This document shows positions 4,345 through 17,880 of a DNA stretch of 32,000 bases, in pieces. Both the position numbers and the translations under genes were made by a program. The notes under the pieces are model-generated. The model searched no databases, was not told the DNA's origin, and saw only the letters and a program-made list of their open reading frames with translations. The stretch is from Pseudomonadaceae bacterium (GTDB taxonomy: Bacteria; Pseudomonadota; Gammaproteobacteria; Pseudomonadales; Azotimanducaceae). Where the stretch lies: the NCBI GenBank assembly GCA_024743435.1, contig JANSWO010000008.1, forward strand, positions 193,491 to 225,490, given 5' to 3'. Each line of letters opens with the position of its first letter. Position 1 is the stretch's first letter.

Positions 4345-4453
4345 CCATAGGCAAAACTAATGGGTCAGTATGACATGCCCAGCAGATTCAACCAAAACCG
4401 CGATTCTCTTCTCAATTAATCGAAAAATCGTTCGATATCATGCAGATAGGAAA

Positions 4454-4620
4454 CCAGGGGTCAGGACCAGGGGTCAGGACCAGGGGTCAGGACCAAGTGC
4501 CAGGTCCAAGCAGGTCCCCGGTGACTAACGAGTATCTGGTTACTTTGTGGCTACTTTGGACCTGGCACTTGGTCCTGACCCCATTTTTTGACCTGGCACC
4601 TGGTCCTGACCCCATTTTTT
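4454..4620. repeat. composite tandem / inverted repeat element
   Basis: Three tandem 13-nt units CCAGGGGTCAGGA (4454-4492). Perfect 27-bp inverted repeat 4483-4509 / 4556-4582 around a 46-nt loop. Then the 31-nt unit GACCTGGCACYTGGTCCTGACCCCATTTTTT occurs twice in tandem (4559-4589, 4590-4620) with one mismatch. Confidence 0.9.
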
Positions 4621-4710: not shown

Positions 4711-4838
4711 GTCGGCATCGTGATCTCCCCCCTCCCCCAACGAACACGATGACGACAGGGGTGGGTAACCACCCTACATGTGTGACTCCTAACGGAACTA
4801 GCCCGGTGATCTCCCCCCAGTGATCCGGGCCTTTTTTT
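4711..4838 (+). ncRNA. candidate small RNA (three stem-loops, C-rich loops, intrinsic terminator); family not recognised
   Basis: Stem-loop 1 is 4711-4756 (12-bp stem with one mismatch, loop ATCTCCCCCCTCCCCCAACGAA). Stem-loop 2 is 4759-4774 (GGGTGG-GTAA-CCACCC, a GNRA-type loop). Stem-loop 3 is 4801-4830 (GC-rich stem, loop TCCCCCCAGT) followed by T7 (4832-4838). There is no credible ORF. The 5' end and promoter were not determined. Confidence 0.35.
4781..4837 (+). repeat. attL: left copy of the 57-bp direct repeat
   Basis: TGTGACTCCTAACGGAACTAGCCCGGTGATCTCCCCCCAGTGATCCGGGCCTTTTTT is identical to 17342-17398. Confidence 0.85.
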
Positions 4839-4900
4839 GTTCATTTACAGCGTCTTGCACGCATATCATGAACTAGGGAAATCGGCGCCAGGCAACGCCT

Positions 4901-4919
4901 GCCCTACGATACGCCCTAC
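4901..4919 (+). promoter_or_regulatory. phased GCCCTAC direct repeats (candidate integrase arm-type or regulator sites, left arm)
   Basis: GCCCTAC at 4901-4907 and 4913-4919 (12-bp phase). A further ACCCTAC lies at 4771-4777. The same heptamer core recurs in phase at the right arm (17193-17199, 17205-17211). Confidence 0.3.
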
Positions 4920-4933
4920 AGGAGCACACGCTT

Positions 4934-5311
4934 ATGACTACCAAGATTGACGAACTAATCTCCTCACCCAACGAGCCGATGACCGATCTGCTTGTATCCC
5001 TGCTACCTCGCTTACACGGTGGCAAGAACCACCAACTCAACGCCAACCCCGAAGCCCGGAACCGCGCGCTACTCGAAAGCATCATTCAGCAAGTCAGCAA
5101 TGCGCAGCTCCCGCTCGACAGCGTCGCGCAGTCACTAGGCATTCTGCTGGCTACCAGCCAAGCTCACGGTGAAGTGGCGGATTCAGTGGTAATCGACGCC
5201 GGATGGGGAATTCAGTTCCTAGCGGAGCTGTCGAGCGCACTTGAGCACGTTCGCAGCGACGCTCAGAGCTTGCTAGACAACCCGCCAAAGGTCCGGGAGG
5301 TCGCAGCATGA
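4934..5311 (+). CDS. hypothetical protein (125 aa)
   Basis: AGGAG lies 9 nt upstream of the ATG. This is the first gene of three translationally coupled ORFs. No recognisable domain. Confidence 0.6.
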   Translation: MTTKIDELISSPNEPMTDLLVSLLPRLHGGKNHQLNANPEARNRALLESIIQQVSNAQLPLDSVAQSLGILLATSQAHGEVADSVVIDAGWGIQFLAELSSALEHVRSDAQSLLDNPPKVREVAA

Positions 5312-5652
5312 GCACCTCCAAGAGCCCTAGTTTGCTACATCAGTTCAAGTACAACCATGAGCACCTGTCCGCAGAAGAACGAGAAGGTTTCCTAGAGTCT
5401 CTGTGTGAGAGCGATAAACGAGAGTACGTCGAACAAGGCTTGATATGGCTAGCGGATGGCTGGCCGGATCTATTCACCGCCGCGGCGGTGCGAGTTCTCG
5501 AGAAAGCCGGCCGAGCCAGCGTAGATGAAGCTGGCAACGTCTCGCTGTTTGGCGATCTGGAGCCGTACGAAAGCTCGTTTACTAGACTCTACAAGGCAGC
5601 ATTGGAAGATAAGCAAGGCGCAGGGGCGCCAAAGAGGAATGCAAATGGCTGA
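5308..5652 (+). CDS. hypothetical protein (114 aa)
   Basis: ATGA start/stop overlap with the upstream ORF. GGGAGG lies 7 nt upstream. No recognisable domain. Confidence 0.6.
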   Translation: MSTSKSPSLLHQFKYNHEHLSAEEREGFLESLCESDKREYVEQGLIWLADGWPDLFTAAAVRVLEKAGRASVDEAGNVSLFGDLEPYESSFTRLYKAALEDKQGAGAPKRNANG

Positions 5653-5779
5653 ACTAACCCTCGAAGAAGTAACACGCTGGCTAACTGGACTGAGCGACGA
5701 CGTTCGACAGCGGATCGAATCAGCGATCGATGCGGAATACTTGAGGCTATCTCGCTCTAACGAGGCTAGAGAGGACTAG
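5645..5779 (+). CDS. hypothetical micro-protein (44 aa), paralog of 17701..17880
   Basis: The ATG at 5645 overlaps the upstream stop (ATGGCTGA), with AGAGGA upstream. Trimmed from ORF 5525..5779. About 20 of 30 aligned residues are identical to the 59-aa ORF just outside the island (ELTLEEVTRWLTGLSDDVRQRIESAIDAE vs EFTLEEVTAWLAGLSDEARSVIETAIDSE). Confidence 0.55.
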   Translation: MAELTLEEVTRWLTGLSDDVRQRIESAIDAEYLRLSRSNEARED

Positions 5780-6144
5780 CGAGCAAAGTAAGCAACACTT
5801 GCCACCGTAGGATTAGATGACCAGACAATAAGTGGTGTGACAGCCCGGAGAGACGGGCCAATGGTGCCACCCGTAGGCGACGCACTTTTAGATTCGGTCC
5901 GACGATCTGTTGCAAGTTTCGCTTCGCTAAACACTGCTCCAAGGCAGACCGGGATACAAAAGAACTGGCGGTCCGCCCTGTGGGCCGCACAAGACACCTC
6001 GTTGGCCGCGCAACTCCTGAAGTCTTGTACCAAATTACGCCCGATCGATTCACCCGCACGTGGCACGAATCGATCAATAAACCCCTGGAACACAAACTCA
6101 GCCCGGTAGGAACCTGAAAGATACTGCTTCGGCGTCAAGGGCAT
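5776..6144 (-). CDS. hypothetical protein (122 aa)
   Basis: Strong SD (GAAGGAGATAACCCTATG) before the internal ATG at 6144 of ORF 5776..6228. Third-codon positions are G/C-rich in the stretch checked. Competing ORFs in two other frames look less protein-like. Confidence 0.5.
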   Translation of the reverse strand: MPLTPKQYLSGSYRAEFVFQGFIDRFVPRAGESIGRNLVQDFRSCAANEVSCAAHRADRQFFCIPVCLGAVFSEAKLATDRRTESKSASPTGGTIGPSLRAVTPLIVWSSNPTVASVAYFAR

Positions 6145-6370
6145 AGGGTTATCTCCTTCAAAGCTACGACGGGCAGAACATGCCAAGCACCCAAGCTCCG
6201 CAGTCGATGTCCAGAGCCTGCCAATCAAAGAGCATCTAAGGTGGGACGCGAGCTTCTAGATCAATAACACTCACCGATGTAGTCTCAGATTACTGAGCTG
6301 GACCAAGACAGCATTTGCGCTGACCTCGAAAACAGCGACCTTCTATAGAAAGGCCGCAACGGAGAATTGC

Positions 6371-7633
6371 ATGGCCGAAGCCAATGAGTATTTTGCGCAG
6401 CAAAAAACCGATCTCCAGCTTCATGAGAGCCTGCTGCGCTTGCCGACCACCGCCGGAACAAACCCAGATCAAACAACCCTCAACTTGGAAGTGGCTACCG
6501 GCTCAAACACTGCTTTCAAGCACACTGCGTCTGAGGCGTTGGAGAACGAGGTTGCTCTAGGTGTGTTGGCAAGAAACGGCCACTATTTCGTGCGAGCCAC
6601 TCTTGCCGAAACGAATCGGCACCGACTAGTGGTAGATAGGGACGAGAGCGGCTTTGACAAAATTTCAGTATTCCCCGGGCACAATTGCACTCCTGAAGAA
6701 AAGACCCAGTTCATTATTGCTGTCAAGGATGAATTCCCCCCCTATTCACGAAACATGGCCCTCGAAGAGGCGCTAGAACCATCACTGCGCGAATACCATC
6801 TCTATCGCGAAGCCGAATTGGAGAAGCTCAAGGGAATTGTCGAAAACCTACTAAAAGATGGAATCGCGCTACGAACGGCTCTCGACGAAGAGAAAACAGC
6901 GTTTCAGGAACAAACGGCAAATGAGCTCAAGAAACACAAGACCAGTCTAGATAGTGAAAACGAAGCAGCAGTGGCCAAACTTCAGACTCGGACCGCAGAG
7001 CTCGATGAGAGAGAAGAACAATTAGACAATCGAGAATCGAAGCACGTTAGAAGAGAAATACGGAAGGAGCTACAGCAAGAGCTTAGATCTAGGGGTGAAG
7101 AGTTCAATCTGACCAATTCAACTAGGAAAAAGCGTTGGCCAGTAGCAGCCGCATACGGCTTGCTCGTCCTGGCACTAGGAGCCGCAACAGGGGTTTCAGG
7201 CTGGCATCTCTTGGCAGCCCCTACGGATGTACTGGCCAACATACGGTTTGTCACTTCGCTTTTTGGCTTCGCTGGCTCAACCATATTTCTCATTCGATGG
7301 TTCGATTCCTGGTTCCGCAGACACGCTGATGAAGAATTCGAGCTCAAAAGACTCCAACTAGATCTCGATCGTGCCAGCTGGGTGGTTGAGATGGCCATGG
7401 AGTGGAATGACTCTGCGGACAAAGAACTGCCACCTGAACTCGCCACAACCCTTACTCGCGGCTTGTTCACTTCGGGCGAACCTCAGCAAGCTTCATCCCA
7501 TCCCAACGAAGACCTCGCCTCACTGCTCTTGGCTGCCACTGGGCTCAAATTGAACATCCCTGGTGTCGGAGAAGCGACCTTCGATTCGAAGGCGTTGAAA
7601 AAAATTGGTGATACATCAGAAAACACGAGATAG
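6371..7633 (+). CDS. coiled-coil protein with two transmembrane helices (420 aa), unknown function
   Basis: GGAG lies 8 nt upstream. There is a central E/K/R/Q-rich heptad-like segment (LEKLKGIVENLL...REIRKELQQELRSR). It is followed by two hydrophobic helices (WPVAAAYGLLVLALGAATGVSGWHLLAA; FVTSLFGFAGSTIFLIRWF) and a roughly 110-aa tail. Confidence 0.75.
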   Translation: MAEANEYFAQQKTDLQLHESLLRLPTTAGTNPDQTTLNLEVATGSNTAFKHTASEALENEVALGVLARNGHYFVRATLAETNRHRLVVDRDESGFDKISVFPGHNCTPEEKTQFIIAVKDEFPPYSRNMALEEALEPSLREYHLYREAELEKLKGIVENLLKDGIALRTALDEEKTAFQEQTANELKKHKTSLDSENEAAVAKLQTRTAELDEREEQLDNRESKHVRREIRKELQQELRSRGEEFNLTNSTRKKRWPVAAAYGLLVLALGAATGVSGWHLLAAPTDVLANIRFVTSLFGFAGSTIFLIRWFDSWFRRHADEEFELKRLQLDLDRASWVVEMAMEWNDSADKELPPELATTLTRGLFTSGEPQQASSHPNEDLASLLLAATGLKLNIPGVGEATFDSKALKKIGDTSENTR

Positions 7634-7676
7634 CGCGGCGGGACCAATAACCCAAGCAAAGGCCACCCAGACTGGA

Positions 7677-8249
7677 TCAATGCTCAAGATGCCGTCGCTC
7701 ACCTTCGGGGTCCCCGGGCGGCTCTGTCGTTCCCAACCGAACGCCTGCAGAAAAGGTAAGTGTGGCCGTAGCCAGGCTGCTGAGCGCGTCGCTAATTTCG
7801 GTGGCCAATAGCGCTTCTATCTGAGCCTCGCGCATTGCCACAGCGACTGGAGCGGCCTTTGTCGGTATCGACAACAACCGCGCCCGCACTACTGAAAACA
7901 CTTGCTCGAGAGCCAAAGTTACTTCATTTGCTGGCACGAGCTCATCAGCCAACACGCGGGCTTCCAGCGCCACCTTTCGGCGCTGTTCCCGGGCAAGTTT
8001 CGCGCGCTCCTGCGTATAGTCCAGAATCTGTCCATCCTCATCCGTCATCAAGGCCGCCAGGCGCTGACGCACACCCCACTCGAACACAGTGTTTGGATCG
8101 AATTGGTGCTTCGCGCCGCGCCCGCTGCCTCCACGGCGCAAAACGGGAAGCGGGTCTTCTGGTCGATCGCACCACCGCCTCCCAGTACGAGCATCTCTAT
8201 CAAATAGAGCTGCTATCTGATTGATTTCTATTGTTTCTTTGCCGGACAT
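7677..8249 (-). CDS. phage Nu1-type terminase small subunit homolog (orphan)
   Basis: The N-terminal wHTH segment INQIAALFDRDARTGRRW...LPVLRRGGSGRGAKHQFDPNTVFEW aligns by eye with lambda Nu1 (LADIFGASIRTIQNWQEQGMPVLRGGGKGNEVLYDSAAVIKW). The following Y..ER...A helix region also aligns. No large terminase gene is in the window. Confidence 0.6.
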   Translation of the reverse strand: MSGKETIEINQIAALFDRDARTGRRWCDRPEDPLPVLRRGGSGRGAKHQFDPNTVFEWGVRQRLAALMTDEDGQILDYTQERAKLAREQRRKVALEARVLADELVPANEVTLALEQVFSVVRARLLSIPTKAAPVAVAMREAQIEALLATEISDALSSLATATLTFSAGVRLGTTEPPGDPEGERRHLEH

Positions 8250-8374
8250 CCGTAGAGGACCTGATAGCTATTCAACGACTGCAATGCGAATTACCTGCGG
8301 TCTAACTCACAGGAAGGACCCAAACCACCTTAGAACGCGGGACCTATCCAAGCCAAGCATAAATCAGCCACGGT

Positions 8375-8758
8375 CTACAAATCCGACTGCTCCGCGCGCA
8401 CGTTTTCCGCCAATTCCCCAAGGGTTAAGTCAGCGTACCTTTTGGGCTTGGCCCAGATAGACCAAAGCAGAGAATCAACACGACTAAGGAGACGCAAAAT
8501 GGGGTGACGCTCAGGTTTGTTCATACGAACGCTCGACAACACGTAATGCATGCTCGCGGATGCTTCGGTCGGGAAATGCCGCTCAAAATCTAGATCAGAC
8601 AGCGACACTCCAAATTCGGATTGAACTGAAGATAGAAACTCTTCGGCGGTATCTCCAACAAGTTCAAGCTCCTTCACGATAGACGAAGACATCGAAATTC
8701 TCTCTCGATCCACACCGGAGAACTCAGAAGCTAAATCCACGAGTCTTGCTTCGATCAT
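8375..8758 (-). CDS. putative Rhs immunity protein (DUF1493 / ACP-like)
   Basis: Starts 4 nt after the Rhs stop on the same strand. The motif LELVGDTAEEFLSSVQSEFGVSLSDLDFERHFPTE resembles the DUF1493 pattern as I remember it. The gene is markedly more AT-rich than the toxin tip. Confidence 0.65.
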   Translation of the reverse strand: MIEARLVDLASEFSGVDRERISMSSSIVKELELVGDTAEEFLSSVQSEFGVSLSDLDFERHFPTEASASMHYVLSSVRMNKPERHPILRLLSRVDSLLWSIWAKPKRYADLTLGELAENVRAEQSDL

Positions 8759-8762
8759 TACT

Positions 8763-11700
8763 TTAATAATCTCCGATCAAGCAGGTGCCTTCTTCCTCGC
8801 ACTCGCGCTTACAGCGAGAGAAATCCAGCGAATCTTTCAACGCCAGTCCCCATCCTAGATATGGGACGGCTTTACCTGCCGCACGAGCGCCGTCGCGCCC
8901 CAATCTACGGGCCGCTGGGGTAGGAAGCGCCGCGGCTGCTTTGCTCGCCGGGCTGGTCCAAGGACCAGCTGGACCACCGCCAGCAATCCCACCTCTCGGC
9001 TTTCGAACCACTTTTCCCGTAGCCACAGCAGTTCCTGCAAGAGCTGCCTCCTCATACCCAACTACTTCAGCTAAGCATCGCCTAACACATGGCGATGCAA
9101 CAAAGCCAAATTTCTGACCTTGAACGAACCTAGCGGTCGCATTTCGATCACCGGGTCTGATTTGAGTATCACGCGGAGTCCAACTTAACCCGAAAGCGTC
9201 CGTCCTCGAAATAGGGTTGGCCGCGACATAGGAAAATTGATTCAAACCGCCATCAAGCCCGATTGGGTCCGATTGGCTGTATCTACCCAAACTCGAATCA
9301 TAGTCTCGGAAGTTGTTGTAGCTCGAACCAGATCCATCCTCGACTTGCCCCGGAAAGCGCAGCGGCTGATTTATAACGGACGTTACTTCCGTCACGCCCC
9401 CAAATGGCTTGTAGTTAGCGTCCCACGCGACACTTTGAGAACCATCCGAAATCACTTGCGGCGTTCCGAGATGGTCCGAGTGAACAAAGTTCAACGCAGG
9501 AGGTCCAGCCGGGCCACTGCTCTGGGGCACTAGTCTCACTTCACCGACGTACAGATTTCGTCGTTGTGGGTTATTCCCCGCTGTGATTCGCACTACACCG
9601 GTGCCGGATGCAAACGTGTAGCTACCGACGAGATTCCACTGATCGCCATTCGTCGTCTGATCGAATGCTACTTGCGCGGTTCCGCCATCGTGATCGACGC
9701 TATAAACCGCCTGGGTCGCCGGATTGGCCTGTCCTGATGGCCACTTAACATAGACATCATAGGTATCCGTTGCCGGAACCTGGAGATCCCATGTCCCCGT
9801 ATGGACCGCCGACGACGACGTTGGCACGAGGTAGAACGCATCAAGGGTCGTGATACCTCCTGTTGAGCTCTCAACAGTGACGTCCATGTTGCCAGCCGCT
9901 AGAGGGAGCGCAGAGCCATTAGTTCCCCAGATATTTCCACCCTGTCGCAGATTCACATTTACGGTCACCGGACCGTTCTGTAGGTCCAGCGTGATGGGCA
10001 TCGCCGTGGTGTTCTGGTTCGAGGCAACATGAGTCAGGTACGCGTAATAGTTGCCTGCGGCTGGGATGTTGATGGTCCACGTCGCCGTGGCTGTGCCAGC
10101 GCTCGCGGGCGTCGTCAGGTAGTCCGCATTGATCGCCAGGTTGTCGCTCGCTGTCGTCCAACTGCCGGTCAGCACCGCCTGGTCTTCGTCGACCATGATG
10201 CCGCCCGCGGGTGTGTTCTGAGTTCTCTGTCGCGTGTATCCGCCGCTACCGAGATCCTCCCATTGGCTGAGCCCAGTGAACTGAGAACTCGTGTGATCGA
10301 GCACGATCTCCGAGGCTCCTGATCCCGTCGGCGCGGCGACCATCGCCAGGCGCAGCCCGTCCGCAAAGATGTACTCTCGGATTACGACGCCTTGATCGTC
10401 GGATTCAGCGATCAGCTGACCGTCACGATCGTAGTGGTAGTGAGTGGTCGAACCATCCTCGACTTTCACCACCCGCTGGCCGAGCGCATTGAGCGTGTAG
10501 ACCCCGAGATTGCCGGTGCCGTCATCGACGCTCGTCAGCCGGTTACGGTTGTTGTAGCTCAGGGTGCGGCTGGTGCCATCGTGGCGTACGTCGCTGCTGG
10601 TGTTGCCACCGGCGGTGTAACCCAACGTTCGTGTACTCGCGACGCCATTGTCAGTCCTCGACACCGAGGTCAGCCGATTGTCACTCGTCCCGTAGGCATA
10701 GGTCTCAGTTAGGGTATCGGTCCCATCGACGATCGAACGACTGGTTCGGTTGCCAACCGCATCGTAGCCGTAGTCGATGTCGCCGTAGACACCAGTTGCA
10801 TCGGTTAGGCGATCCAGCGCGTCGTAGACGAACGTTTGCGAACGAGCTGAGTCGATATTGTCGGTGATGGCGGTGATGTTGCTGACGCCGTCGTAGGCGA
10901 TTGTGCGGTCGAAGATGGTAGGGGTCGCGATGCCCGTTAGCCGATAGTCATTATCGTAGGTCAAGGTCGCGGTTAAGCCGTTGCCGTAGGTCCAGCCGGT
11001 GAGGCCTCCAAAGGGCAGGTAGCTCATGGACGAGGCGACGTTCTCGACGCTGCCGCCGCTGGCTTGGGTCGTCACACTGCTGACGCGACTCAGCGCATCT
11101 CGAGACAGTGTCACTACCCGCCCTGATGGATACGTCGTCGTGAGCACGTTGTCAGCCAGATCGTAGGTGTAGCTCGTCACATAGGTCTGGCCACCAAACG
11201 TGCGGGTCTCGGTCAGGACGTTGCCGCGATCGTCGTAGGCGTAGGCTGTTGTCCCGCTCACATCCGCCATGGATGTCAGACGGCCAAGACCATTAGTTCC
11301 AGCATCGTAGGTATACGTCACGTTCTCCGACGTGGCCGCTGGATAGGTGATGCTGGTGACTCGTCCCAGGGCGTCATAGGCGTAATTTTCGACCACTCCG
11401 CGAGGATCCGTGGACTGGGTCATGTTGCCCGCGACGTTGTAGACATTCACCGTTGTACCGGCATCGGCGCTTGCTTCCCGAATCTGTCGATCAAGGCCAT
11501 CGTACGTATACGAGGTCACGACGCCGCGAGGGTCCGTGACCTGAACCAGGTTATCCCGGTCGTCATAGACATAGTCCGTGTCGTTCTGAGCGGGATCCGT
11601 CACGGTGATGAGTCGATCGAGCGCATCGAACACGTTGGACGTGACCCGAGCATTGTCGTCCGTCATAGACGTCTGATTGTTGTTCAGATCGTAGTCGTAG

Positions 11701-13934
11701 GTTGTTGACTGACTAGCGCCGCCAATAATCTCTCTCAGCCGAGACAGCTCATCAAATACTCGAGTCTGGCTCTTTCGGATCGTACTGCCAGCATCACGAA
11801 TGACTTCAGCGGTTTGGTTGCCAGCGGCATCGAGCGTGTACTCAATGCGCTCGCCCAGGCTGTTCTCAACAGCCGTCAATCGGTGCGCCGCGTCGTACTC
11901 GTAATCGAGCGTCGAGCTATCGGGCATCGTGATACTGGTGACCTGGCCGACAGCGTCATAGCCGTAGGTCGTGATCGCATCGCCTTGGGCAGACTTGATG
12001 GTGCTCGTCGTCAGCCAGCCGCGCGCGTTGTACGCGAGCTCAGTGACCACATCATTGACGTCTTCGATGGCCGTGGGCAGCCCGCGAGCATCGCGCGAGC
12101 TGATTTCTGTCACCTGCCCCAGGGGATTGGTGGTGGACAGTAAGTCACCGGCGGTGTCGTAGGTGAACGTTGTGACGTCGGTGACATCAGTACGCGGACC
12201 ATCGATCGTCGCAATCAGACCCTGAGCGTTGTAGGTGTAGGTGGTGGTTTGCGAGGTTCCGGTGGTGGTGTAGGGAACCGTCTGTGTCTGTGTGTCCGTC
12301 GTCGTGCGTGTCAGCAGTCGACCTTCGGCGTCATAGGTCATATCGATCGTTTGGCCGGGGCGGACGATCTGTGTCGGTACACGGAAGTTGGAGTGCCAAG
12401 TGCGGGTCTCGACACGCTCATCGGGCGTGCCCACCGCCTCAGTCTTTGTGAGAAGCAAGCCATTAGAATCGAAGTCGTGGTCAGTAACGTTGCCTTCTGG
12501 ATCTGTCTCGAGATCCACGTAGCCGTTCGAATCGTAGGTGCGCGATTGAACCGTCGCACCACACAAGGCGGTGGCGACTCCTTCGGTACTAACGACCCGC
12601 TCGACACCTTGAACATTCTGGGTGGTAAAAATGGATTGCTTACCGAGTGGATTGGTAAGCGTAACCGTCCCATTTGTATTGAATGCCAACGTGTTCTTAT
12701 CAACACCGCCAGCGTGTTCGCTCGAGATCACGCGACCACTCGAATCGTAGTCCCATGTTGCATATCGATCACCGTTCTCGTCGGTGATGCCAGTCAGCGC
12801 ATTCGGAAAAGCAGAGTCTTCGTAGTGATATGTCCGGACAGGATTGTCATTCGAAACCAACGGAGTCTCGTCTGGATACGTAACCGTCTCCAAACGCCCA
12901 CTTGAATCGTACGAATAGGAATACGTGTTCGAAAGCGGATCAGAAACGCTTACAAGCTGATCAGACTGAATGACGACTGAAAGGCTTCGATTCTGGTCAT
13001 CCGTGATAGATGACAGGCCATTGCTATCATAGGTAAGCGTCAACGCCTGCCCTGCTTTGTTGGTAATGGATGTTAGACGACCATCCACGTCGTACTCTTC
13101 GATCGAATCGTCCGGCGTTGTTACAGTCCACCCGTCCACAACGACAGGATTAGGCGACGTAACGATTGGCGTTAACTGAAAGTCGACATCCGAATCAGCC
13201 TCGTAGATCAACACTGGTGAGGTTGCGGCTACGGAGAACCGGTAGCTACGGCCATCGTCCCTAACTACGTCAAGCAATCCATTAAGATTGCGGACTTCAC
13301 GTGAATAGCTCCACCGCCACTCACCTTCTAGGCTTCGGTAGTACCGGTCGAATCGTAGAGGTAAGTTGGTACCGATTGGACGAATATCGGAGTCTGTCTG
13401 TCGTTTACTTCCGGTACCAATCTCCATCGGATTACCCGCGACATCGCAGCTTCCCTTTTCGGGTTTGTCTTCAACCTCGCACGTACCATTTGGCTGAAGA
13501 GCCCATCCGGCGGGGCAACCACTTCCTGCCGCAGAGTTGTACATGAAATAGGTGCTAACCCCCTCGCAGCTGACGCCGGGGTTAGGCGCAGTTACAAAGC
13601 CCCATCCAGAAGATGGACTCGGGTAAGCACCACCCCAATAAGTGTTCACGGCAGCAGCGTTGAGATTGCAGCTACTGACCACATCGGAAGCGGAAGCTTC
13701 CGCTGCTAAGCATGCTGACTGAGCAAGCGATGGCGAATCGTAGTACCCGCCCGAGATGTACACGCCACAAGCAAGTGACGCGTATGAGGTTAGCGAAAGA
13801 AGGGTTAGTAACGAGAGCTTTATCAGAAGTCGACCGCTACTGAGAAGCCAAGCGGACAACTTGTTGCGTTCGGTGTGATCTCTGAGGTTGGAAAAACCAC
13901 AAGAAACCTTCGGAAAACCACCTAGTGTCGACAT
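8763..13934 (-). CDS. Rhs / YD-repeat polymorphic toxin with Sec-type signal peptide and variable C-terminal toxin domain
   Basis: Dozens of YD repeats (YxYDxxGRL/V type) and the N-terminal GNPMEIGTGSKRQTDSD motif. The RHS core end is FVHSDHLGTPQ...PLRFPGQVED...YNNFRDYDSSLGRYSQSDPIGLDGGLNQFSYVAANPISRTDAFGL. The ATG at 13934 has GGAGG 8 nt upstream; the ORF track starts at TTG 13955. The hydrophobic leader is LLIKLSLLTLLSLTSYASLA. Confidence 0.92.
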   Translation of the reverse strand: MSTLGGFPKVSCGFSNLRDHTERNKLSAWLLSSGRLLIKLSLLTLLSLTSYASLACGVYISGGYYDSPSLAQSACLAAEASASDVVSSCNLNAAAVNTYWGGAYPSPSSGWGFVTAPNPGVSCEGVSTYFMYNSAAGSGCPAGWALQPNGTCEVEDKPEKGSCDVAGNPMEIGTGSKRQTDSDIRPIGTNLPLRFDRYYRSLEGEWRWSYSREVRNLNGLLDVVRDDGRSYRFSVAATSPVLIYEADSDVDFQLTPIVTSPNPVVVDGWTVTTPDDSIEEYDVDGRLTSITNKAGQALTLTYDSNGLSSITDDQNRSLSVVIQSDQLVSVSDPLSNTYSYSYDSSGRLETVTYPDETPLVSNDNPVRTYHYEDSAFPNALTGITDENGDRYATWDYDSSGRVISSEHAGGVDKNTLAFNTNGTVTLTNPLGKQSIFTTQNVQGVERVVSTEGVATALCGATVQSRTYDSNGYVDLETDPEGNVTDHDFDSNGLLLTKTEAVGTPDERVETRTWHSNFRVPTQIVRPGQTIDMTYDAEGRLLTRTTTDTQTQTVPYTTTGTSQTTTYTYNAQGLIATIDGPRTDVTDVTTFTYDTAGDLLSTTNPLGQVTEISSRDARGLPTAIEDVNDVVTELAYNARGWLTTSTIKSAQGDAITTYGYDAVGQVTSITMPDSSTLDYEYDAAHRLTAVENSLGERIEYTLDAAGNQTAEVIRDAGSTIRKSQTRVFDELSRLREIIGGASQSTTYDYDLNNNQTSMTDDNARVTSNVFDALDRLITVTDPAQNDTDYVYDDRDNLVQVTDPRGVVTSYTYDGLDRQIREASADAGTTVNVYNVAGNMTQSTDPRGVVENYAYDALGRVTSITYPAATSENVTYTYDAGTNGLGRLTSMADVSGTTAYAYDDRGNVLTETRTFGGQTYVTSYTYDLADNVLTTTYPSGRVVTLSRDALSRVSSVTTQASGGSVENVASSMSYLPFGGLTGWTYGNGLTATLTYDNDYRLTGIATPTIFDRTIAYDGVSNITAITDNIDSARSQTFVYDALDRLTDATGVYGDIDYGYDAVGNRTSRSIVDGTDTLTETYAYGTSDNRLTSVSRTDNGVASTRTLGYTAGGNTSSDVRHDGTSRTLSYNNRNRLTSVDDGTGNLGVYTLNALGQRVVKVEDGSTTHYHYDRDGQLIAESDDQGVVIREYIFADGLRLAMVAAPTGSGASEIVLDHTSSQFTGLSQWEDLGSGGYTRQRTQNTPAGGIMVDEDQAVLTGSWTTASDNLAINADYLTTPASAGTATATWTINIPAAGNYYAYLTHVASNQNTTAMPITLDLQNGPVTVNVNLRQGGNIWGTNGSALPLAAGNMDVTVESSTGGITTLDAFYLVPTSSSAVHTGTWDLQVPATDTYDVYVKWPSGQANPATQAVYSVDHDGGTAQVAFDQTTNGDQWNLVGSYTFASGTGVVRITAGNNPQRRNLYVGEVRLVPQSSGPAGPPALNFVHSDHLGTPQVISDGSQSVAWDANYKPFGGVTEVTSVINQPLRFPGQVEDGSGSSYNNFRDYDSSLGRYSQSDPIGLDGGLNQFSYVAANPISRTDAFGLSWTPRDTQIRPGDRNATARFVQGQKFGFVASPCVRRCLAEVVGYEEAALAGTAVATGKVVRKPRGGIAGGGPAGPWTSPASKAAAALPTPAARRLGRDGARAAGKAVPYLGWGLALKDSLDFSRCKRECEEEGTCLIGDY

Positions 13935-14333
13935 GCTCACCCTCCCTGGTTGCAATGATCGATTGTGTGAACGAGCTGGCTAGATTCATTCACGCTACTC
14001 ACTCGTCAACGACATGAAACAATCACGAACAAGAAAACGCAAGTAGAGATAAATGAACTCTCTATGAAACCGGGTCCGGAATACCACGCAGTGAGTATCT
14101 GCGAAAAGGTCGACAAGGGAACTTCGCTTTCATCTAGTGCGTTTGGCCATGGGCCAAAACGCGCAGGGACTGCCGGTGCTCGTGGACCTCACATATTTTG
14201 ATCATTAGCGGAGTTCCAGCGCGCTCGCCGAAAAATCGCGCGGGAGAGGCTATGCGTGCTTGAGTCGCCAGCCGCTCCCGCGCTTAGTCGCCAAGCGCTA
14301 GCTAGGCGACCCTCCGGGAAAGATCTTAAGAGG

Positions 14334-14454
14334 GTCCTCACAAACGAGTACGGTACGGTCCTCACCAACGAGTATGGCAAACGCTCGCTCGTCCTCACTC
14401 ATGAGGACTGACTACCTTCACAAACGAGTACGGTCCGTACTCGTTCATGAGGAC
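14334..14454. promoter_or_regulatory. iteron-like repeat cluster (candidate island ori or operator)
   Basis: GTCCTCACAAACGAGTACGG (14334-14353). GGTCCTCACCAACGAGTATGG (14357-14377). Palindrome GTCCTCA-CTCA-TGAGGAC (14391-14408). TCACAAACGAGTACGG (14418-14433) runs into the palindrome AACGAGTACGG-T-CCGTACTCGTT (14423-14445) and CATGAGGAC. Confidence 0.6.
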
Positions 14455-14843
14455 GGTGATTTTTCGTGGCACTGCCATTTTTCTAGCGGCAGGGAGCCAC
14501 AGTCGAAATCAAGTCCTTTCGTTTTTGAGACCGCCAGCCAGCCGAGGGCATACAGACTAGGGATGCGCGCACTCGTACGCCCCCCTTGCCTCGTCACCAC
14601 CAACAGTCCACTCGACGTCAGCTGTCCAAGTGCTCGAGCCATCGAAGCTTTGCTGTTAAAACCAAACTCTCGATAGCGACTGTAGGGAAGCGAAATGTTC
14701 CCATTACTATCTGGCCCAAGGTATTCACAGGCCGCCATCATCAGAAGATGTGGCGACCTGCCGGTTAGTTTTTGATACTCGGCGCTGTAGACGACACGTT
14801 TGGGTATCTGACCAAATCGCTCTCGCCTCTTTCTTGGAGCCAC
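14445..14843 (-). CDS. winged-helix DNA-binding protein, possible replication initiator/regulator
   Basis: 132-aa ORF. It has a basic N-terminus and a wHTH-like segment SKASMARALGQLTSSGLLVVTRQGG. Its 3' end abuts the iteron-like cluster. Confidence 0.6.
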   Translation of the reverse strand: MAPRKRRERFGQIPKRVVYSAEYQKLTGRSPHLLMMAACEYLGPDSNGNISLPYSRYREFGFNSKASMARALGQLTSSGLLVVTRQGGRTSARIPSLYALGWLAVSKTKGLDFDCGSLPLEKWQCHEKSPSS

Positions 14844-14849
14844 GCGAGA

Positions 14850-15197
14850 TCAAGGTCTTTGATCGGCAGTTGAAGTAGGCCCGCCGGCTATTCTTGGGAC
14901 TATTTGGTATCGAAGAACACGCGCCGGAGCGGCAAACCGTGTTGGGACAACTTCCCATATCCCCTGAATCTCGTAACCTTTAGCCCGCAGCGTAGCGATG
15001 GTGCTATTCAGCGCGTGATCGCCTAGATCCTCAGCTTCAAAACGATTTAGGGAACCTGCCTCCAGCGCCTCAAGAATGCGTAGCGCTTTCGTGTTCTTTC
15101 GGGGTCGGTTACTATCGAGGGCGTGTTGTTTGGCGACGACACTTCCCACCTCACGATCGTGTAACACTAGCCCCGCATTCGTGCGGGGTATCTCCAT
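14850..15197 (-). CDS. winged-helix (HTH) domain protein
   Basis: 115-aa ORF. ILEALEAGSLNRFEAEDLGDHALNSTIATLRAKGYEI resembles small wHTH proteins of islands and satellites. Its start overlaps the upstream stop (TAATG). Confidence 0.6.
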   Translation of the reverse strand: MEIPRTNAGLVLHDREVGSVVAKQHALDSNRPRKNTKALRILEALEAGSLNRFEAEDLGDHALNSTIATLRAKGYEIQGIWEVVPTRFAAPARVLRYQIVPRIAGGPTSTADQRP

Positions 15198-15430
15198 TAC
15201 GCGGCCCCCTTATCTTGCAGTACGAAAGCTTCGAGATAGTCTCGGGTCGAGAACATGGCAGCGTTGCCCATGAAAAAACTCGGGACCAGATTTAGCCGTT
15301 TTTCATGGCGCCATTGCGTAACAGAGGAAATCCCCAAACTCTCTCGGAGGGCTGTTCGGCGCTCAAACGTGGGATTAAGACCATGATCGGCTACAAGCCG
15401 GTCGATCTTCTCTTCGGTACTGAGAATCAT
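15197..15430 (-). CDS. AlpA-like HTH regulator / excisionase
   Basis: 77-aa ORF with AAGGTGA SD. The segment LRESLGISSVTQWRHEKRLNLVPSFFMGNAAMFSTRDYLEAFV fits the AlpA / MerR-type excisionase layout. Position between int and the replication-like genes is typical. Confidence 0.55.
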   Translation of the reverse strand: MILSTEEKIDRLVADHGLNPTFERRTALRESLGISSVTQWRHEKRLNLVPSFFMGNAAMFSTRDYLEAFVLQDKGAA

Positions 15431-15487
15431 GTATCACCTTACTTTAATGAGGTGATACCAACTGTAATGGTCGATCCCAGGTGGGAA

Positions 15488-15994
15488 TCAATAGGGCTCT
15501 TTAACACCCCCCCTATCGGCGTTTTCATATGAACGCGCAACGGCTTGCGCGAGAAGTGCCGTTACCTGCATCTTCTGAGCGTCATTCAAGTTCGCAGATC
15601 GCTTCATCTCTTTAAGCTTGTCCTTCTTCATTCCGAGCGACCGAGCGATTGGCGCTGTACCGAAAAGTAACGCCAAGCCCGCAAGGATGAACGCACGCCC
15701 TTTTACGAAACGATTGCTACCGCTAGGGTTCTTGAAAACCTCGGTCGGATCCTCCCCTGTCGACATACGGCGGAACATATCAACCAGGTCATCAAGATGC
15801 TCAGCGATCACCTGACTATCGGGATAATCGTGCTCTCTTTCCCTAGCCTGTAGCACCTCCAAGATTCGCGTGTAATTCGAAAGCCGCTTCTTGGAAATGT
15901 GCTGATCCGTAAGCTCCTCTACCGATGAGACCTCATAGGCCTCGAATATCACTTTCACAGCACGATCGGCTGCCGCTTGTTCTTCTTGCCCCAT
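15488..15994 (-). CDS. hypothetical protein (168 aa)
   Basis: The ATG at 15994 has a strong SD (TAAGGAGGCGATTCGATG) embedded in the last 40 nt of int. An alternative GTG at 15958 overlaps the int stop (GTGA). No domain recognised. Confidence 0.6.
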   Translation of the reverse strand: MGQEEQAAADRAVKVIFEAYEVSSVEELTDQHISKKRLSNYTRILEVLQAREREHDYPDSQVIAEHLDDLVDMFRRMSTGEDPTEVFKNPSGSNRFVKGRAFILAGLALLFGTAPIARSLGMKKDKLKEMKRSANLNDAQKMQVTALLAQAVARSYENADRGGVKEPY

Positions 15995-17175
15995 CGAATC
16001 GCCTCCTTATTCGCCCGCCAGCCTTGAACCGTATCTGACCAAAACTCCAGCAGCTCAGCCTTATCCTCTACTCGCAAAGAGTGATCGTAGTGCCGGCCAC
16101 CAGCCGTCTTCCTGCGAGAAGCAGGACGCTCGATCTGATCCACAAGGTCAAAAGGCGCCCCAAGCTCACAGCAATGAGTGTGAAAGGCAGTGCGGAAATC
16201 ATGGAACGTCCACGGTGCAATCTGCGCCCGCTCTGTCATACGGCGTCTGAGGGCTCCACGACTGCCATTGGAGATCTCGCCTGTCCTGGTGAAGAACCAA
16301 TCGCCAATCGGCGGGCAGTCCTCGAGCTGCGCTCGCGCCAGCTCTGGCAATTCAAGTATCTGCTCCACCTGGGTCTTCTGGATTCGGATGCGCCACCGTC
16401 CGTCCACTACATCTCGTCTGCGAATCGTCGACACATCCGACCAAATCCGAAGCGGCACCAACATCGAGAATCGAACCAACTGTTTGTAGGGGTACCGCTC
16501 ATCGCCGGCCGCATCCCAGATAGCAACCATCTCCCGAGGCTCCAGGACGCGATCTCGCACCGCCATGGGGTGGGGTTTCGGAATCCGTGCCAGTGGCGAT
16601 AGGTCGATCAGGGACCACTGCCAGGCGCGCTTAAAGAACGCGGTGAGGCTCGCATGAGCATTGTTCACCGCCGCCCGACCTCCACTGGTTGACCGCTTGT
16701 CTGCCGCAGCGGCACTTTCGACCTCATCAAGCAGCTTCTGACAGTCTGAGGGTGCGATGTCCCGGATATGGTGTCGATCCCACCGGTTTCCGATTCGCCG
16801 GCGCAGGTATCGATAGATCTCCTGGGATCGCGGCGCGAGCTTAGCGACGTGTCTGGCTTCGTAGCGTTCCCAGACGTCTGGAAACATCACCGCGTCTGGA
16901 TATGGAGCAAGACCAGCTTTAACTCGGCGCCGCACCTCTTCGGCCGCTTCACGCGCCTGAGAAAGCCCCATAGCCTCACCAGAGCCATGGTAATACCCAA
17001 TGGTGCGCATGCCTGCGCCGCGCAGCTGAAGCTCCCAAGCAAACAAGCTGCGACTGCTAACGCTCAGATAGAGCCCAGATGAGCCCTCGTCCTTGTAGTA
17101 GACCTTGCCTTTCCGCGGTGGTTGGAGCTTGCGGAGTTTGGCGTCTGTCTTAAACCGCCCTAGTACCGTTGGCAT
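15955..17175 (-). CDS. int: tyrosine recombinase / integrase (P4-type, N-terminal arm-binding domain)
   Basis: N-terminal DUF4102-like KLRKLQPPRKGKVYYKDEGSSGLYLSVS. C-terminal catalytic region with HDFRTAFHT and ...GGRHYDH (tyrosine). It is adjacent to attR. Confidence 0.9.
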   Translation of the reverse strand: MPTVLGRFKTDAKLRKLQPPRKGKVYYKDEGSSGLYLSVSSRSLFAWELQLRGAGMRTIGYYHGSGEAMGLSQAREAAEEVRRRVKAGLAPYPDAVMFPDVWERYEARHVAKLAPRSQEIYRYLRRRIGNRWDRHHIRDIAPSDCQKLLDEVESAAAADKRSTSGGRAAVNNAHASLTAFFKRAWQWSLIDLSPLARIPKPHPMAVRDRVLEPREMVAIWDAAGDERYPYKQLVRFSMLVPLRIWSDVSTIRRRDVVDGRWRIRIQKTQVEQILELPELARAQLEDCPPIGDWFFTRTGEISNGSRGALRRRMTERAQIAPWTFHDFRTAFHTHCCELGAPFDLVDQIERPASRRKTAGGRHYDHSLRVEDKAELLEFWSDTVQGWRANKEAIRWGKKNKRQPIVL

Positions 17176-17189
17176 GTATTGAAACCGCG

Positions 17190-17259
17190 CTTACCCTACG
17201 CCTTACCCTACAAAGGCATTGAAACGTACTTAAACAGGATTTAAGGGTAGTATCTACCC
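17190..17259 (+). promoter_or_regulatory. direct and inverted repeats upstream of int (candidate arm-type or operator sites)
   Basis: CTTACCCTAC at 17190-17199 and 17202-17211 (12-bp phase). Palindrome GGGTAG-TAT-CTACCC at 17245-17259. Confidence 0.3.
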
Positions 17260-17341
17260 GTGAACAACAAAAAGGCTGGTTTTCAGAGGTTTGAGATCGG
17301 GCAAGCATACGTTTTGAAACACAGTGAAATGCCTAATTTCC

Positions 17342-17398
17342 TGTGACTCCTAACGGAACTAGCCCGGTGATCTCCCCCCAGTGATCCGGGCCTTTTTT
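17342..17398 (+). repeat. attR: right copy of the 57-bp direct repeat
   Basis: Identical to 4781-4837. Includes the terminator-like hairpin and a T6 tract. Confidence 0.85.
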
Positions 17399-17404
17399 AG
17401 GTCA

Positions 17405-17660
17405 ATTTTGAATTCGCTCGCAAAGCGAGCGCATTCAAAAATGACCAGATTCAAACCTCGAGAGAGCGACAGAGCATGGCCAAGGCAGTGCGAAGCACAG
17501 CCTGCCATGTCTCGAGAGCGTCCATCCCCTATTTTGAATTCGCTCGCAAAAAAATGACCAGATTCAAACCTCGAGAGAGCGACAGAGCATGGTCAAGGCC
17601 GTGCGAAGCGCAGCCTGCCATGTCTCGAGAGCGTCCATCCCCTATTTCGAATTCGCCTCC
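17405..17660 (+). repeat. tandem structured repeat (126 bp + 113 bp + 17-bp partial third copy)
   Basis: Copy 1 is 17405-17530 and copy 2 is 17531-17643. They are nearly identical apart from a 13-bp insertion in copy 1 and a few substitutions. A partial third copy is at 17644-17660. Each copy holds a long imperfect hairpin centred on GCAGTGC-GAA-GCACAGC. Confidence 0.9.
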
Positions 17661-17700: not shown

Positions 17701-17880
17701 ATGAAAGCCCAACCAGCGCAACCCACCGAATTCACCCTCGAAGAAGTGACCGCCTGGCTCGCGGGCCTCAGCGATGAAGCTCGATCTGTCATCGAAACCG
17801 CGATCGATAGTGAGCTGGCGAGAAAGCATGAGCAGCAGCGCATGTCAGCTGAAAATCGCCATGAGGGCTTGACGCACTAG
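17701..17880 (+). CDS. hypothetical micro-protein (59 aa), paralog of island ORF 5645..5779
   Basis: Read by hand, because it falls below the ORF-track cut-off: MKAQPAQPTEFTLEEVTAWLAGLSDEARSVIETAIDSELARKHEQQRMSAENRHEGLTH. AGGAA lies upstream. Its stop overlaps the convergent ligase stop in CTAG. Confidence 0.5.
   Translation: MKAQPAQPTEFTLEEVTAWLAGLSDEARSVIETAIDSELARKHEQQRMSAENRHEGLTH

Follow-up and report, generated by a model that had tools for sequence, protein, structure and literature searches.

Tandem Golvesin_C modules inserted before the core of an Rhs toxin: a putative glycan-binding arm

The largest open reading frame (ORF) in a 32,000-nucleotide stretch of DNA from a Pseudomonadaceae bacterium (GenBank assembly GCA_024743435.1, contig JANSWO010000008.1, positions 193,491 to 225,490; termed the window, whose numbering is used throughout) encodes an Rhs polymorphic toxin. 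The ORF lies on the minus strand at 8763-13955 and has 1730 codons. Inserted into the shell of this protein, just ahead of the Rhs core, is a block of 283 residues that holds two Golvesin_C modules, and modules of the same family recur at the same junction in related Rhs proteins. The insert may well act as an arm that is displayed outside the toxin capsule and binds glycans.

The gene itself occupies 8763..13934. It opens with an ATG at 13934 that is preceded by a GGGAGGG Shine-Dalgarno sequence, the frame being open up to 13955, and closes with a stop codon at 8763-8765. A predicted N-terminal export signal region (13770..13934, residues 8-62) is followed by a Cys-rich pre-plug region (13437..13769, residues 63-173) and by the DUF6531 N-terminal plug (13236..13436, residues 174-240; PF20148, 26.5 bits against a cut-off of 24.1). 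The YD-repeat shell covers 10338..13235 (residues 241-1206), with YIFADGLRLAMV as its last strand, and is followed by the insert (9489..10337, residues 1207-1489, 29.4 kDa). The last shell strands resume after the insert with the PF03527 RHS motif found by Pfam (9387..9485, residues 1491-1523, VHSDHLGTPQ...). The Rhs-associated core, which is the C-terminal plug with an aspartyl-protease motif, spans 9186..9413 (residues 1515-1590), and the toxin tip completes the protein (8766..9185, residues 1591-1730).

The protein belongs to the Rhs/YD-repeat cocoon proteins, as YD repeats, cocoon fold, and core motif are all present. Pfam reports RHS_repeat PF05593 in 20 stretches (E 9.6e-82) together with DUF6531, PF03527, and two Golvesin_C domains, while NCBIfam reports YD_repeat_2x, TIGR01643, in 12 stretches and Rhs_assc_core TIGR03696 (E 5e-20) directly after the insert. 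The protease motif of the core reads DPIG-x19-DAFG, with alanine replacing proline in its second half, and cleavage is predicted after L1590. The corresponding DPXGX19DPXG motif, the role of the C-terminal plug, and DUF6531 as the N-terminal plug have been described for Tse5, in which the C-terminal plug comprises the ~77 residues before the cleavage site (PMC10684867). An AlphaFold2 model of 1200 residues (401-1600) has a mean predicted local distance difference test score (pLDDT) of 86, with values above 90 over the modelled part of the shell and of 56-85 in the insert. In Foldseek, this model matches the solved Rhs cocoons (E 1e-44) of S. bongori Rhs, Tse15, RhsA, Tse5, and RhsP, followed by TcB-TcC, teneurins, and SGS1.

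The borders of the insert are YIFADGLRLAMV (residues 1195-1206) and FVHSDHLGTPQ (residues 1490-1500). The initial annotation had placed a beta-sandwich block of about 278 residues at 9501-10334, just before the core-closing motif. These limits lie within a few codons of those given here, the block does adjoin the motif at residue 1490, and all peptide strings quoted are found in the translation of the ORF, on the minus strand, which had been left unstated. The suggestion that the block holds two similar modules of a golvesin-C-like or carbohydrate-binding type is borne out by the Pfam profile, by a sequence match to the solved structure 6F2P, and by fold matches to CBM6 and CBM35 modules. The profile search that had been proposed for the insertion gives Golvesin_C (PF25275) twice, with 113.8 bits against a cut-off of 31.6 bits and E 7.8e-33, which is far beyond chance. 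Scored separately, the two modules reach 56.3 and 71.2 bits against the same gathering threshold.

The insert begins with a leader (10191..10337, residues 1207-1255) in which alignment with homologs reveals a degenerate half-unit of the 'VDNxDxxFxxxGxWxxS...GYYGxxY' type (EIVLDHTSSQFTGLSQWEDLGSGGYTRQRT) and a linker, modelled with beta-strands. Module 1 (9873..10190, residues ~1256-1361) is a full-length Golvesin_C domain (E 4.6e-15, pLDDT 86-94) with an additional weak match to CBM_6 (2.9e-4). Aligned with homolog segments, it has lost family motifs in several places, ARW having become LTH, NRAT NQNTT, and LLGT GTNGS. Module 2 (9564..9854, residues ~1368-1464) is a short form without the leader strands (E 1.1e-19), and in the same alignment it retains the canonical motifs VYVKW...HDGG...FDQTTNGDQWNLVGSYTF. 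The modules are distant paralogues, sharing 26% identity over 73 residues (E 4e-5).

Sequence comparison yields a single solved relative of the insert, the C-terminal domain of a Paenibacillus xanthan lyase (6F2P residues 947-1021, E 1.5e-8), which matches module 2. An AlphaFold2 model of the insert alone is all-beta with a mean pLDDT of 81.6. Its best Foldseek match is again 6F2P (E 2.3e-11), and it also matches glycan-bound modules, among them the agarase CBM6 2CDP (template-modelling score 0.67), CBM6E, the Pc1,3Gal43A CBM35, and the xanthan-binding MiXBM. The insert modules are Golvesin_C domains with a beta-jelly-roll fold like that of CBM6, CBM35, and CBM36. PF25275 presumably corresponds to the InterPro entry IPR033803. 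The terminal module of the xanthan lyase PXL is regarded in a review as an unclassified xanthan-binding module (PMC10881899). In a study that assigns golvesin and xanthan lyase to IPR033803, glycan arrays showed binding of a defined motif by isolated CBM6-CBM35-CBM36_like_2 domains of this entry from the Bacteroides proteins Cbeg4 and Cbeg5 (PMC9166713). By analogy with these members of the family, the insert modules would bind carbohydrate. The PXL module and the Cbeg domains belong to the same domain family and have experimental polysaccharide or glycan binding, but they are appended to an enzyme or an Fn3 lectin rather than inserted in a toxin shell. With only 19-30% identity between them and the insert modules, their ligand specificity is not transferable.

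Relatives of the insert came from an exhaustive HMMER search, which returned 1,986 representative proteins at E <=0.001; a word-indexed homolog search with the insert alone gave no matches. The best matches outside the Rhs proteins are module arrays fused to peptidoglycan amidase, GHL10, NAGPA, adhesin-like repeats, and multihaem cytochromes. Fusion of arrays to such diverse proteins means that Golvesin_C is a mobile extracellular module.

The position of the modules in Rhs proteins was followed in the 120 best Rhs homologs (33-50% identity), with Golvesin_C read from precomputed Pfam lists and an alignment of 41 sequences used for homolog comparison. PF25275 is present in 28 of the 120, or about a quarter, the window's own protein included. 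In all 23 carriers that were mapped among the nearest Rhs homologs, the modules follow the last YD repeat and precede the core, with YD-to-core spans of 177-1434 residues. Arrays at this junction hold from 1 to at least 7 modules. Starting from the insert instead, 58 of its 149 nearest relatives are Rhs proteins or Rhs C-terminal fragments, and the modules stand directly before the core in 57 of these. The exception, P0232 (2431 residues), carries Golvesin_C modules at its N-terminus (residues 66-407), before the shell, so Rhs scaffolds can bear the module at a second site as well. An approximate motif count gives 1 to ~14 modules per protein, most often 3. The insert architecture recurs in environmental bacteria. 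Rapid gain and loss of modules was considered and rejected: cluster mates at 90% identity or more are equal in module number and differ at their start sites and toxin tips rather than in the array, which indicates that the arrays are not rapidly changing. A single-protein scan of GTDB genomes returned the Rhs flanks only, without the insert.

Most homologs without detectable modules (53 of 83) have just 6-11 residues at the junction, which amounts to a tight hairpin turn. The premise of the initial annotation that Rhs proteins normally run from the YD repeats into the core therefore holds, and the survey of equivalent positions that it had proposed reveals a junction common to every mapped carrier. 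It had also named two outcomes that would count against its proposal. The block is not made of divergent YD repeats; the insertion is, however, common in this Rhs clade, where Pfam labels it automatically. No paper combining Rhs with golvesin, CBM6, or CBM35 was found in the literature that could be searched. The architecture is thus real, recurrent, and already annotated by machine, with no paper found that describes it, and database names such as "RHS repeat-associated protein" and "DUF6531 domain-containing protein" hide it.

Other homologs carry unrelated inserts at this junction or in the preceding hairpin (P0068, P0087/P0098/P0100/P0109, P0051, P0027, P0025/P0102/P0112/P0083, and P0057/P0080). 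They include a Glce-type beta-sandwich of 185 residues, a Cys-flanked domain of ~210 residues, a 285-residue domain, a 623-residue repeat region, dockerin-like EF-hand pairs, and Ala-rich coiled coils of ~400 residues. Several large apparent gaps at the junction (P0070, P0077, P0059, and others) are artefacts in which the probe matched an earlier YD repeat, and they were not counted. In one related locus (L008 19587-25989), downstream of the 2881-residue carrier P0004 and amid transposase genes, lie a 518-residue ORF with Golvesin_C only and a 357-residue ORF with Golvesin_C and the RHS core. These short ORFs resemble orphan cassettes of modules, core, and toxin, through which recombination could exchange modules and toxin together.

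Sequence alignment places the insertion point at residues ~1045-1050 of RhsP ('LENGSI') and at the Tse5 loop before FFHTDHLGTP. In the solved T6SS (type VI secretion system) effectors this point is a plain turn or loop, the loop of Tse5 being the longer. With the plug limits taken from Tse5, the insert therefore occupies the turn of one of the final hairpins of the shell, and ~25 residues separate it from the C-terminal plug. The folded volume of the insert is ~35,600 Å3 and that of the 14.6-kDa toxin tip is ~17,700 Å3. Rhs cavities of ~32,000-35,000 Å3 have been published for Tse5, RhsA, and Rhs1 (PMC10684867), and one of ~44,000 Å3 for a bacterial teneurin-like protein (10.1101/2025.11.11.687626). 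The insert alone exceeds the published Rhs cavities, and inserts of up to 1434 residues in other carriers could not be enclosed. Competition for cavity space would also predict shorter toxins in carriers. None are seen, the median toxin tip being 134 residues in 65 carriers against 135 in 81 non-carriers (Mann-Whitney p 0.97), and tip length does not follow insert span (Spearman rho 0.02). The insert is very likely outside the cocoon, and the external display proposed by the initial annotation is in this indirect way supported by volume and by toxin size.

The N-terminus of the protein points to export by Sec. A long n-region precedes the hydrophobic core LLIKLSLLTLLSLTSY and then ASLA-C; from the inferred start codon, the region is positive by a hydrophobicity heuristic. 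ASLAC reads as a signal peptidase I site or as a relaxed, lipobox-like motif at C63, which could make the protein a lipoprotein. Canonical Sec signal peptides stand at the start of at least 15 of 22 carriers. P0110 and P0002 are seemingly without a signal, although longer cluster mates of both have one. The pre-plug region contains 7 Cys in 111 residues, compared with 1 in the 1350 residues of shell and insert, and carriers have 6-14 Cys in the same region, which fits a disulfide-bonded extracytoplasmic protein. Among the homologs retrieved, none is related in sequence to this Cys-rich region. A database version of the protein, P0001 (1554 residues), starts at M177 and so lacks the upstream start at 13934 along with the signal peptide and the Cys-rich stretch that follow it (region 13425-13934). 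This gene call is probably truncated, since it leaves out a start with a Shine-Dalgarno sequence and regions that homologs possess. An exact-sequence look-up of the window's own Rhs protein found no record.

No PAAR, prePAAR, or VgrG-type domain was found by Pfam in the window protein or in the precomputed Pfam lists of the carriers, and the window contains no T6SS structural genes, nor do seven related loci within 10 kb of the Rhs gene. Judged by sequence, the protein does not appear to fall in the class of T6SS-delivered Rhs effectors, as it is without a PAAR or VgrG N-terminus and without T6SS linkage, and a signal peptide is predicted instead. Those effectors (RhsA 7Q97, Rhs1 7PQ5, Tse5 8CP6, RhsP 8H8A, and Tse15 8UXT) share with it the cocoon, the DUF6531 plug, the aspartyl-protease plug, and a toxin of ~15 kDa, but they have PAAR, prePAAR, or VgrG-binding N-termini, no signal peptide, and genes near those of a T6SS.

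Some relatives are embedded in a different secretion system. Golvesin_C-carrying Rhs genes, accompanied by a small downstream ORF, lie inside type II secretion system (T2SS) clusters, two of them in L009 (1-22353) and one in L010 (4570-23545). The Rhs genes separate GspE/F/G/H/J from GspL/M/N-like proteins, the secretin GspD, and GspK, and the two loci carry the downstream half in opposite orientations. The Rhs proteins of L009 and L010 are 56% identical and are therefore one sub-lineage rather than two independent events. Together with the Sec signal peptides, the Cys-rich N-terminus, and the lack of T6SS genes nearby, these T2SS-embedded relatives lend indirect support to the T6SS independence that the initial annotation had supposed.

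The closest functional class is that of the T2SS-linked secreted Rhs bacteriocins, represented by Bcn-A of Xanthomonas perforans. Bcn-A is a 1398-residue Rhs bacteriocin that is active in cell-free supernatant and loses its activity in a mutant of xpsD, the T2SS secretin (PMC7259588). Whole families of Xanthomonas and Ralstonia Rhs proteins have been linked to gspG (preprint 10.1101/2025.05.08.652813). Like the window protein, these are Rhs/YD cocoon toxins that are not associated with a T6SS; they have an immunity gene downstream, where the window has a candidate for one. The type II link is shared by the two insert-carrying loci L009 and L010 and not by the window itself. Compared by description, Bcn-A differs in that the available text mentions no Golvesin_C or CBM insert, its 1398 residues being the size of the insert-less homologs, and in that its authors proposed the N-terminus as the part that recognises the target (PMC7259588).

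The closest structural precedent is mosquito SGS1 (PDB 8FJP), in which a carbohydrate-binding module and a lectin carbohydrate-recognition domain, both beta-sandwiches, interrupt the YD sequence and decorate the outside of the shell, where they are putative receptor domains (PMC9935623). SGS1, itself a structural match of the shell model, shares with the window protein the use of carbohydrate-binding-type beta-sandwiches as insertions in the YD sequence. It is eukaryotic, however, and its insertions lie in the middle of the shell, occur as single copies, and cannot be annotated from sequence. In the window protein and its bacterial relatives, the site is the pre-core hairpin and the occupant is a recognisable Pfam family, which forms tandem arrays of variable number in toxins. 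WapA and bacterial teneurin-like proteins also resemble what is predicted for the window protein: they carry a signal peptide, do without a T6SS, enclose a polymorphic toxin that is paired with an immunity gene, and bear additional domains for adhesion or anchoring. Those accessory domains (LysM, S-layer, NHL, FN-plug, and TIP) lie N-terminal to the shell and are not inserted ahead of the core, and none in the texts consulted is of the Golvesin_C type. The insert is thus a variation on known Rhs and shell-decoration themes and not a separate new class.

Taken together, these features suggest an externally displayed, glycan-binding targeting or adhesion arm on a Sec-exported, T6SS-independent Rhs toxin, a reading to which we assign a probability of about 0.6. 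The tandem Golvesin_C pair, spliced into the turn of a late shell hairpin, would fold independently and project outside the cocoon, which would still enclose the basic toxin tip of ~15 kDa between normal N- and C-terminal plugs. The protein would be exported by Sec and probably released or surface-displayed through a T2SS or a comparable route rather than fired by a T6SS. Outside the cell, the modules may serve as a multivalent arm that attaches the capsule to a polysaccharide of the target surface, such as lipopolysaccharide (LPS), capsule, or exopolysaccharide. The arm would then play the part of the receptor-binding domain in diffusible bacteriocins and provide the targeting step of a released Rhs bacteriocin, the surface bound being the target's and not the producer's. 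The data themselves show what the domains are, their fold class, where they are inserted, their recurrence there in varying copy number, and the lack of linkage to a T6SS; the placement outside the cocoon, the binding of carbohydrate, the route of export in this organism, and the target as the surface bound are inferred.

Several points weigh against this reading. The signal-peptide call for the window protein rests on a hydrophobicity heuristic, and the database gene call P0001 begins at M177 without a signal. No gsp genes are present in the window, and linkage to a T2SS is seen in only two of eight carrier loci (the window and seven related loci), both from one sub-lineage. In L012 (17243-18436), ~2 kb downstream of the carrier P0110, there is a Tle1-like lipase gene whose product has a T6SS_Tle1-like catalytic domain. 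Although this gene does not encode a structural part of a T6SS, it makes a T6SS connection elsewhere in those genomes conceivable. The external placement of the insert comes from volumes and toxin sizes and not from the geometry of the model. Module 1 has lost several conserved positions of the family and may bind nothing, folds of the CBM type sometimes bind proteins instead of sugars, and the glycan-binding role is drawn from relatives, with a ligand that is only putative.

The main competing explanation, less likely than an arm for targets though a serious one, is self-anchoring. The modules would then bind a polysaccharide that belongs to the producer itself, on its surface or in its matrix (LPS, capsule, exopolysaccharide, or peptidoglycan), and keep the toxin there for contact-dependent use. 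The lipobox-like ASLAC after the hydrophobic core, the Golvesin_C arrays on peptidoglycan amidases, and the binding of a bacterial exopolysaccharide by the nearest solved relative all suit such anchoring. So do the cell-wall, S-layer, or lipid anchors described for Sec-exported Rhs/WapA and bacterial teneurin-like proteins (PMC12704120; 10.1101/2025.11.11.687626), although the known WapA and teneurin-like anchors are N-terminal and not inserted beside the C-terminal plug. The signals of most carriers are moreover of the signal peptidase I type and not those of lipoproteins, and Bcn-A acts from cell-free supernatant (PMC7259588). Nothing in the data separates self glycans from target glycans.

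A role unrelated to sugars is improbable. The insert might be a structural or secretion accessory that is recognised by the secretion machinery, braces or gates the C-terminal plug, or binds protein; its place only ~25 residues before that plug, the degeneracy of module 1 at family motifs, and the unrelated inserts that show the same or an adjacent hairpin to tolerate many folds could all be read in this way. A copy number that varies from 1 to at least 7 at one site suits avidity better than a fixed structural role, however, and most close homologs do without any insert. The alternative inserts, too, are modules of types used in adhesion or binding, and those family members for which there are data bind glycans. 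It is hardly credible that the block consists of divergent YD repeats in the shell wall or of a cargo-like domain inside the cocoon. It is all-beta and lies within the repeat region, but its 113.8 bits fall on Golvesin_C and none on RHS_repeat, its fold is a CBM6/35 jelly roll, its volume exceeds the cavity, inserts in carriers reach 1434 residues, and toxin size is unaffected. These data contradict both versions.

A bolder and rather unlikely extension is that a large class of diffusible Rhs bacteriocins, exported by Sec and the T2SS, uses the hairpin ahead of the core as a general port into which different targeting modules can be swapped, with Golvesin_C arrays as its commonest occupant. 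Because the port adjoins the C-terminal plug, engagement of a glycan on the target would be mechanically linked to the opening of the capsule, and the toxin would be set free. Such a protein would be a toxin container that is addressable and works on its own, without a machine to inject it.

The papers on Bcn-A (PMC7259588) and on bacterial teneurin-like proteins (10.1101/2025.11.11.687626) both state that delivery is unexplained. A carbohydrate-binding-type array at a fixed site and of variable copy number is a concrete, testable candidate for the targeting step of Rhs toxins outside the T6SS. A place in the shell where inserts can range from 177 to over 1400 residues is also useful for engineering Rhs capsules as addressable protein containers.

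The toxin tip comprises 140 residues (14.6 kDa, isoelectric point 9.6) with 5 Cys and Gly/Ala-rich stretches, and its size is typical of encapsulated Rhs toxins (~15 kDa). No relatives were found in a word-indexed search of 5.8 billion proteins, nor any Pfam or PHROG match, and the tip is therefore predicted to be an orphan toxin. With 4 intervening bases after the Rhs stop codon, a minus-strand ORF of 127 residues (8375..8758) is a candidate immunity gene. It has only a sub-threshold match to DUF1493, and small ORFs occupy the equivalent downstream position in related loci.

The Rhs gene is part of a 12.6-kb integrative island at 4781-17407. The island is bracketed by a direct repeat of 66 nucleotides (4781-4846 and 17342-17407), 95% identical and ending in a terminator-like hairpin. 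It carries, all on the minus strand, an integrase gene (15955-17175, E 1.4e-30), a helix-turn-helix gene (14850-15197), and a homolog of the terminase small subunit (7677-8249; PHROG 57, E 7.6e-23). Its flanks are housekeeping genes, and the G+C content is 51-56% at the island ends against 57-60% in the flanks. No tRNA was found at the attachment repeat, and an Rfam scan gave no RNA gene. By analogy, the island resembles a phage-satellite-type element that carries the toxin as cargo.

Further repeats lie in and around the island. A direct repeat of 81 nucleotides, 73% identical, links a small island ORF (5525-5779; repeat copy 5651-5731) with sequence just outside the right end (17728-17808), and resembles an incomplete, island-borne copy of the chromosomal target region. 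Tandem repeats adjoin the island ends, with two copies of 107 nucleotides (96% identical) at 17437-17656, 13-nucleotide units of ACCAGGGGTCAGG at 4453-4504, and two copies of 31 nucleotides at 4555-4616.

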